DNA from: Dehalococcoidia bacterium
GTDB taxonomy: Bacteria > Chloroflexota > Dehalococcoidia > Plut-88900
Assembly (NCBI GenBank): GCA_965207225.1
Contig: CBDBLV010000004.1
Location: 288,001 to 352,000 of the forward strand
Direction of reading: 5' to 3'
Length of the DNA stretch: 64,000 bases
Made by a program: the position numbers and the translations under genes. Every line of letters begins with the position of its first letter. The stretch's first letter is position 1. The notes below the pieces were generated by a model that was given only the letters and a program-made list of their open reading frames with translations, had not been told where the DNA came from and did no database searches. Shown here piece by piece: positions 44,646-45,470 of this stretch.

Positions 44646-45470
44646 CAGGCTGCCGACTTCACACCTCGGCGCCCATCACTATGCAGGATCAAAGGAGTAC
44701 CATGAGCCGCATAAGCCTACACAGGCCTCGTCTCAACCGAGCGGCATCCCGCCGCCCGGCCCCCGGTACGCGCCTCCTCCCATTCTCCTTTCCCTTTCCA
44801 TACTCCGTCCTGCTCCCCAACACCCACTACAAGCGCTGCCCAAAGGCCCAGCGTCTCGGCCTTCGCAGCGATCAATCACCACCCCGCCCCCTTCAAGGAA
44901 GGTCCCCGGACAAATCACGGCACACCCTCTGGAGGGCCGTTGCCAGGTGAGCGCCCCACTCATAGGGCGCAACGGTTTCGCCCCGTCAGGCGACGCTAAG
45001 GAGCACGGTGTAATGCTGCTTCATCGGGCCATAGCGTCCTTTTTGGACTCCACCGTCGTCACCATCGGCAAGCTCCGATCTACGAACGGCGGTCACGGGT
45101 CCTCGCTCTCACCCCTTGGGGTGGCAGAGCACTTCCGGTGGGCGAGACTGCCCCAGAGCGAGAATTTCTCGTGTCTCGTCCGCGTCCCCTCGGAAGTATG
45201 GGGCTGTGATTCCACCGTCGTCACCATCGGCATGTTCCGGTCTACGAACGGCGGTCACGGGTCCATGCTCTCACCCCTTGGGGTGCTAGAGCGCTTCCGG
45301 TGGACGAGGCTGCCCCAGAGCGAGAATTTCTCGCGTCTCGTCCACATCCCCTCGGAAGTGTGGGGCTGTCGCAGAATCGACGCTGATGTGGACCGTCCCC
45401 GGGGGCGAACACCCCGCATCGGTACAGGCGTCGCCGACATCCTGCGCAAACCGTCCGGGACCTTCCACCC
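44646..45470 (+). ncRNA. Candidate large structured ncRNA, paralog B, with a tandemly duplicated core domain (ends approximate)
   Basis: Closing helix 44897-44911/45453-45466; structure-preserving substitutions between the tandem copies; G-U pairs indicate the + strand. Confidence 0.75.
45046..45369 (+). repeat. Direct tandem duplication, 2 x 162 bp
   Basis: 45046-45207 vs 45208-45369: 15 substitutions, no indels (hand alignment). Confidence 0.95.

Follow-up and report, generated by a model that had tools for sequence, protein, structure and literature searches.

The window, a stretch of 64,000 nucleotides from the genome of a Dehalococcoidia bacterium, contains two related intergenic elements, one of type B in the spacer between ilvD and a hydratase gene, and one called paralog A. 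The genes downstream of the window elements are katG and that of enoyl-CoA hydratase. In the type B element a 5' module precedes a core that is bounded by the two arms of a closing helix. Two domain copies are present in the core and form a 162-nt tandem duplication (45049-45369, 91% matches). The 5' module, with its TG-extended promoter, GGAG and ATG, is common to the B and C types of the family. The A copies have in common a sigma-70-like promoter, which occurs in three variants, the motif AAGGAGGAACC with no start codon, and a closing helix of 15 bp. They are distinguished from one another by single-base indels. The coordinates of all features are collected in Table 1.

Several other repeats are found around the type B element. 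A hairpin-like repeat (ATTCC...GGAAT around GATGCCCCGCGA) at 44510-44575 has dozens of copies in the genome, often positioned just 5' of element promoters, and a small hairpin repeat (CCGCTCG...CGAGCGG) at 45526-45565 has more than 30. The terminator-like hairpin is itself a dispersed unit and follows A-type copies at C5:528484 and C3:141514. An 11-nt tandem repeat, GTTCAATCAAC (2.9 units, 45844-45875), is located just 5' of a promoter-like site at 45892-45920, the second such site for the enoyl-CoA hydratase gene. An open frame of 558 amino acids (44443-46119, plus strand), which is the ancestral frame of the domain, spans the whole spacer, including the promoter, both domains and the terminator-like hairpin.

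Table 1. Features of the type B element and of paralog A, in window coordinates
Feature	Position	Strand	Remarks
Sigma-70-like promoter, type B (TTTGCA, 18 nt, TG-TATAAT)	44610-44639	+	Same hexamers in 9/9 aligned 5'-module copies
5' module II: promoter, Shine-Dalgarno-like GGAG, ATG at 44702	44590-44895	+	86-90% identity to other B copies, ~74% to type-C elements
Closing helix, 5' arm, B core (GGAAGGTCCCCGGAC)	44897-44911	+	Pairs with 45453-45466
Domain copy 1	45049-45210	+	162 nt = 54 ancestral-frame codons (DSTVVTIG...VWGC)
Nested sub-domain (P1-P3), copy 1	45131-45197	+	From pair counts and folding
P1, copy 1 (7 bp)	45131-45137/45191-45197	+	
P2, copy 1 (11 bp)	45138-45148/45173-45183	+	
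P3 hairpin, copy 1 (6 bp)	45158-45163/45167-45172	+	
GCCCCA, candidate pseudoknot 5' strand, B copy 1	45150-45155	+	P2/P3 bulge; from ..G CCC CA. codons (Leu/Lys-Pro-Gln/His)
TGGGGC, candidate pseudoknot 3' strand, B copy 1	45199-45204	+	From Trp-Gly codons (TGG GG.)
Domain copy 2	45211-45372	+	
GCCCCA, candidate pseudoknot 5' strand, B copy 2	45312-45317	+	Letters read directly
TGGGGC, candidate pseudoknot 3' strand, B copy 2	45361-45366	+	Letters read directly
Closing helix, 3' arm, B core (GTCCGGGACCTTCC)	45453-45466	+	Pairs with 44897-44911
Terminator-like 19-bp hairpin and T run, itself a repeated module	45650-45701	+	Same module 3' of two A copies
Promoter-like site, paralog A (TTGACT, 16 nt, TAAACT)	17688-17715	+	
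AAGGAGGAACC, Shine-Dalgarno-like, no start codon after it	17747-17757	+	Conserved in A copies
Helix-closed core, paralog A	17865-18172	+	15-bp closing helix 17865-17879/18158-18172
GCCCT, candidate pseudoknot 5' strand, paralog A	18064-18068	+	Letters read directly
GGGGC, candidate pseudoknot 3' strand, paralog A	18113-18117	+	Letters read directly

In each B copy P1 encloses P2 and the P3 hairpin. The fold z-scores of the cores against shuffled sequences are -7.09 and -7.51. Compensatory changes were found in P1 (pair 91:147, UA in 57 and CG in 31 domains), P3 (pair 113:127, GC in 37 and CG in 22) and H2 (pair 59:83, UA in 79 and CG in 11) of 92 distinct domains, with the provisos that these splits may rest on few events and that related copies are not independent in any of the strand and helix counts. 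The nested structure as a whole performed better on the same 92 domains than every slid control. In the element rows of the alignment 89.5% of the cells are paired, and G·U outnumbers A·C by 233 to 78, or about 3:1. The corresponding values for the gene rows are 69.2%, and 46 G·U to 58 A·C. The fuller pairing and the G·U excess of the element rows show that the helices reached completion after the loss of coding, and did so on the sense strand. The RNAalifold consensus of the 92 rows was poor (-14.2 kcal/mol, covariation term -0.52) and was not counted as evidence; it paired the most conserved runs alone (CCCC/GGGG and CCACCG/TGGTGG) and failed to recover P1-P3.

A compact tertiary fold, such as that of a ribozyme or an aptamer, had been suggested for these sequences. 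The z-scores, compensatory changes and G·U excess support the part of this suggestion that places the module in a selected RNA fold of the sense strand. Its readings as a ribozyme or riboswitch were abandoned because they have no credible match in Rfam: a search of the whole window against Rfam 15 at gathering scores gave no matches, and at E-values of up to 10 nothing credible was found at either locus, the lowest E-values falling in hairpin repeats at ~45640-45750. A ligand-specific aptamer is also a poor fit because about 40 copies precede unrelated genes.

The same earlier note proposed that a C-rich junction strand of the module pairs with a G-rich 3' tail, forming a pseudoknot. Complementary strands do occur at the proposed positions in all three domain copies of the window. 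In copy 1 GCCCCA is inside a 9-nt bulge (45149-45157) between P2 and P3. TGGGGC begins 2 nt past the end of P1, after a 1-nt linker, so that the tail is outside the enclosing helix, as proposed. Because pairing of a bulge inside P1/P2 with a tail outside P1 would cross both P1 and P2, the arrangement has the topology of a true pseudoknot, in which complementary strands cross an existing helix. The calculated duplex energy of the strand pair is -10.8 kcal/mol in B and -7.5 kcal/mol in A. The bulge would be 18 stacked pairs away from the tail, and the contact would require P1 to fold back at the 7-nt internal loop.

The complementarity was compared with chance by shuffling the unpaired letters of copy 1 5000 times. 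In 1.2% of the shuffles this bulge and this tail had a Watson-Crick match of at least 6 nt, and in 5.1% there was one between any two unpaired segments. For at least 5 nt, the only length conserved by the repeat family, the values are 5.8% and 26%. Within a single sequence, the complementarity of the strands is only mildly unusual.

The element copies show no sign of coding. The differences among 81 element rows are distributed over the three codon positions as 34778/30678/29720, which shows no periodicity, and their synonymous share (0.217) is not above that of the other two frames (0.254 and 0.236). In the 11 gene-like rows, by comparison, the differences by codon position are 421/475/1058 and the synonymous share is 0.506. 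It follows that the element copies are non-coding. The idea that the domain is still translated, with Pro and Gly kept for the sake of the peptide, has several points in its favor. The ancestral frame is free of stops in all 81 element rows, while the other frames have stops in 45 and 47 of 92 rows; four of the six indel events in the B-type alignment are multiples of three; and two further B copies have a 5'-module ATG from which the ancestral frame can be read through. Set against the lack of any third-position or synonymous excess, these points leave translation extremely unlikely. In the window copy the ORF that begins at the ATG (44702-44950) is in a different frame from the domain, substitutions that create stops are only slightly depleted (4 seen, 7.5 expected), and the A type lacks a start codon and contains single-base indels. 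No family was recognized by Pfam or PHROGs in the window open frame or in two fragment ORFs. A Terminase_6C protein domain in the window was rejected on the same grounds, there being no Pfam match and no synonymous or third-position excess in the 81 rows.

The origin of the module can nevertheless be traced, by sequence similarity, to a protein-coding gene. For a 120-residue segment of a sister element (P0001) the database contains 778 relatives, most of them 430-465 residues long, and the window domains match this fragment with E-values of 2.9e-14 and 2.4e-10. One relative, P0018, is encoded in the same genome, and the window domain aligns to its residues ~286-339. Judged by these alignments, the 162-nt module descends from 54 codons (~286-339) of a stand-alone terminase-like gene, the product of which contains a P-loop ATPase and an RNase-H-like nuclease. 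The Pfam cut-off for Terminase_6C (PF17289), 22.6 bits, is reached by the full-length relatives P0095 (27.7) and P0112 (26.0). The parent gene, of 462 codons, is located at L157:7688-9076 (G000 C1:233687-235075). Its neighbors are cmk, glmS, pckA, ubiA and yidC-type genes, and it is not in a prophage. Two elements, L011:1129-2226 and L009:1129-2520 (G000 C4:456321 and C5:1617081), have a B-type 5' module fused in frame to a stretch of ~150 residues, which is 74% identical to the real gene and 91% identical between the two. Both have the look of intermediates on the way from the gene to the structured repeat. Congeners contain similar ORFs (P0002-P0010).

The closing helix pre-exists in the gene, where GACGATGGAAGGTTCC (encoding DDGRFL) and GGAACCTCCATCGTC (encoding GTSIV) form the longest inverted repeat. 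These arms are identical in 8 and 9 of 12 gene-like rows. Synonymous change is suppressed at both arms, where it is at most 0.2 against a mean of 0.85; some longer regions further 3' show as little of it. The candidate pseudoknot strands descend from Pro-His/Gln and Trp-Gly codons, and their complementarity is thus inherited from the gene.

The family is large. The A query matches 63 places in the genome, 14 of them near full length with 88-93% identity, and the B query matches 11 places, which correspond to five elements. Profiles of the shared 5' and 3' modules have 43 and 38 hits, respectively. Reciprocal searches with the arms give ~50 helix-closed elements in this genome, in a dozen families with different cores. 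Six singleton 'helix-closed' intervals (clusters 12, 13, 14, 16, 17 and 19) were excluded from the family counts as likely chance hits. Another six intervals, in which the arm motifs are spaced by 1002 nt, were rejected as a chance match in identical copies of an unrelated element with a 403-residue ORF. That element is present as six identical segments of at least 1.3 kb (G000 C4:20607-21608 and five other places), and its ORF is probably an insertion-sequence transposase. The B domain was found by BLAST in 8/8 congeners and in 0/52 other genomes of the family and class, and the A domain in 9/9 genomes of the genus. A distant-mode search of a plasmid collection with the A core gave no match. 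Elements contain one, two or three tandem domains, the latter being found in some congeners (L053 in G005 and L078 in G006). The middle copy of L078 has a variant first sub-domain, which implies that different module subtypes can be combined in one element. Taken together, the family has its own predicted promoter, a long-range closing helix, many copies, a distribution restricted to the genus, and homology to a terminase-like gene.

Of 37 elements with both modules, 36 have a downstream ORF, and the longest such ORF is co-oriented with the element in 30. By our own arithmetic, with crude ORF calls, the one-sided binomial probability of this bias is ~3.5e-5. The upstream ORFs are divergent in 18 cases and co-directional in 17. 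About 37 copies precede ORFs of various kinds, as far as the partial annotation goes.

The element might also be a functionless selfish repeat, in which the low rate of change of the two strands would reflect recent spread, gene conversion or a mutational bias of C/G runs. There are many young copies, with 88-97% identity within types; the ilvD-hydratase spacer has its two-domain element in this genome only, among the nine looked at; and the genome is full of other hairpin repeats. Nevertheless, a purely selfish repeat is improbable. Other columns of the very same copies change freely, the helices contain compensatory changes and a 3:1 one-strand excess of G·U and are more fully paired than in the parent gene, and 30 of 36 elements are oriented toward the downstream gene.

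It had been claimed that the two strands are among the best conserved segments, and this is borne out by the alignment. Conservation was assessed on a tree of 81 non-coding domain copies, with parsimony changes counted for each column. GCCCC is the most conserved of 158 five-column windows, and GGGGC is among the best 11. The ten columns of the core pseudoknot have 0.3 changes per column, compared to 5.02 for other unpaired columns and 2.38 for columns paired in the nested fold. In 20000 random draws of ten unpaired columns, no set had a value as low. Both proposed strands are under unusually strong constraint.

The core GCCCC/GGGGC is retained in 84 of 92 distinct B-type domains. It consists of a G-C pair followed by four C-G pairs, the latter present in 92, 92, 90 and 91 of the 92. 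Among the A-type domains the equivalent core is retained in 31 of 33, with two broken and one change of U·G to C-G. The closing G-C pair has become G·U in two and a mismatch in six of the 92 rows, and there is practically no variation in the four C-G pairs. At the terminal A-U position, 45 of the 92 rows are unpaired and a single one has G-C. The breaks are uncompensated: GTGGC and AGGGC occur in two element rows, and GAGGC in 2 of the 33 A rows. Among the 92 B-type and 33 A-type distinct copies there is no informative covariation, so that the pseudoknot receives no support from compensatory change, and the pairs that do vary do not covary.

Nor did the additional loop-loop contacts of the earlier note hold throughout. 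The match of TCGGAG (17970-17975) with CTCCGA (18022-18027) occurs in A and in a less common variant of B, but the main B type has local hairpins in both loops; these two motifs, too, derive from codons of the gene (IGE and LRV). The 4-nt match of CAAG with CTTG exists in B copy 1, but the other copies in the alignment do not have it.

A point in favor of the pseudoknot is that all four Gly codons are used after Trp in the real genes, while the last base of this codon is C in nearly all element rows. However, the gene rows already contain CCCCA...TGGGG, and the Pro codon is CCC in 11/11 genes. Because the match predates the RNA, a part of the strand conservation is not RNA-specific. It can be argued that each motif is conserved for a reason of its own, that no pairing joins them, and that their complementarity is only what remains of the Pro-His and Trp-Gly codons. 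The 9-nt C-rich bulge might, for example, bind a protein, which could be the terminase-like parent, or a G-rich RNA acting in trans, and the G-rich tail could belong to a different nested helix. The lack of covariation agrees with such a division of roles, as does the nested ensemble. In the latter the C-rich strands are unpaired with probabilities of 0.91-1.0 and have no nested partner, and the G tails have predicted nested partners at 45260-45265 (p ~1), 45348-45351 (p 0.47) and 18153-18157 (p 0.99).

The type-C elements point in the same direction. In all seven copies GCCGCA (or GCCGGA or GCCTGA) is opposed to TGGCGC, giving at most 4 of 6 pairs, so that these relatives keep the bulge at the same position without the match. 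Type C and clusters 1/2 are beyond the reach of nhmmer with a sub-domain profile, and the positional homology is that of a manual alignment. On the other hand, the predicted nested partners of the tails are poorly conserved. The columns of CCCC at 45347-45350 have 13, 6 and 2 changes, and AGTCCC, the nested partner of the A tail, is replaced by AATACC in one A copy. Moreover, the joint freezing of both strands is what a contact between them predicts. Separate roles without pairing thus appear somewhat unlikely.

The nested partners of the tails could also be part of a switch, in which the G tail would alternate between the bulge and its nested partner, each module toggling between two folds. 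The partner in A would be GUCCC beside the closing helix, and in type C the bulge CCGCAAG would compete with the 5' strand of P1 for CTTGCGG. The predicted nested alternatives are strong, and the type-C sequences CCGCAAG and CCCGCA are both able to pair with CTTGCGGG. Such a switch is nevertheless very doubtful, because the alternative partners differ from family to family and have little conservation, there is no ligand class or expression platform to point to, and the downstream genes are unrelated.

The two strands are, in summary, selectively frozen complementary pentamers (GCCCC/GGGGC) in an undescribed, multi-copy, structured non-coding RNA that is predicted to be driven by its own promoter. 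Pairing between them is plausible but unproven, and our confidence in it falls somewhat short of even.

Pseudoknots that join a bulge or internal loop to a 3' tail are known in several riboswitches and small ribozymes. As in these, the module has a bulge strand inside P1/P2 with its complement immediately outside P1, the core is short and G-C rich (5-6 bp), and both strands are highly conserved. The module differs in having no covariation and no Rfam family, in its tandem and dispersed copies, and in the coding origin of its complementarity.

Comparative genomics has uncovered a number of large structured bacterial non-coding RNAs, such as OLE, GOLLD, ROOL, HEARO/omega RNA and raiA. The elements resemble them in their length of hundreds of nucleotides, strong fold, long-range closing helix, own promoter and narrow lineage. 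They differ in having no Rfam match, in a search that covered those of these RNAs included in Rfam, and in that they occur in ~50 copies per genome, form several families with exchangeable cores and originate from a fragment of a protein gene.

Bacterial genomes also contain dispersed structured intergenic repeats and MITE-like elements, among them REP/BIME, ERIC, Correia and bcr1. Like these, the present elements are multi-copy, intergenic, hairpin-rich and modular, and their loci vary between close relatives. However, their inverted repeat is internal, they carry a predicted promoter, and 30 of 36 point toward the downstream gene. Neither a transposase nor a target duplication was identified for them. 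A MITE bounded by terminal inverted repeats was rejected because conservation extends well past both arms of the closing helix (~170 nt on the 5' side and ~80 nt on the 3' side), and the arms are also found inside the parent gene.

The domain is homologous by descent to Terminase_6C (PF17289), but has no Pfam or PHROGs hit, is under no coding selection, and carries a 54-codon tandem duplication in the middle of the fold. The 5' stabilizers of the STAB-SD type, known from cry3A of Bacillus thuringiensis, have a possible parallel in the conserved AAGGAGG without a start codon near the predicted 5' end of the A-type transcript. The B type, in contrast, has a real ATG after its Shine-Dalgarno-like motif, and the structured core has no STAB-SD counterpart. 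A limited full-text search of the literature for such repeats in Dehalococcoidia, or for terminase-derived RNAs, returned nothing.

To judge only from its anatomy and orientation, the most likely role of the element is in cis, as a promoter with a structured leader, or as a stable RNA. Once the fragment had ceased to code, its nested helices became complete and change in both pentamers came to a halt. In the most likely reading, the C-rich P2/P3 bulge of the sense-strand RNA would pair with the G-rich tail just 3' of P1, and the resulting pseudoknot of 5 bp would hold each module together as a compact unit. The element as a whole would then be a long nuclease-resistant leader or a stable RNA, transcribed from its own predicted promoter toward the downstream gene. 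Should the contact be real, the 162-nt module would be a self-contained folding unit open to tandem duplication, and this would explain why elements have one, two or three copies.

A more far-reaching, and unlikely, possibility is that an RNA (or DNA) structure lies within the coding region of the gene itself. The segment within the 15-bp DDGRFL/GTSIV helix would have escaped repeatedly and gained a promoter, giving rise to ~50 structured non-coding RNAs per genome in which the former Pro-His and Trp-Gly codons became the clamp of the pseudoknot. If this were true, a bacterial family of structured RNAs would have been born from protein-coding sequence and would perhaps still be recognized by the parent protein. 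The question also arises whether the parent terminase-like protein still recognizes the structure embedded in its own gene. The family itself shows how a coding fragment turned into a structured RNA: the coding constraint was lost, the helices were completed by compensatory change, and two codon-derived runs were frozen. The origin of a structured RNA family has in this way become testable in an uncultured group of bacteria.
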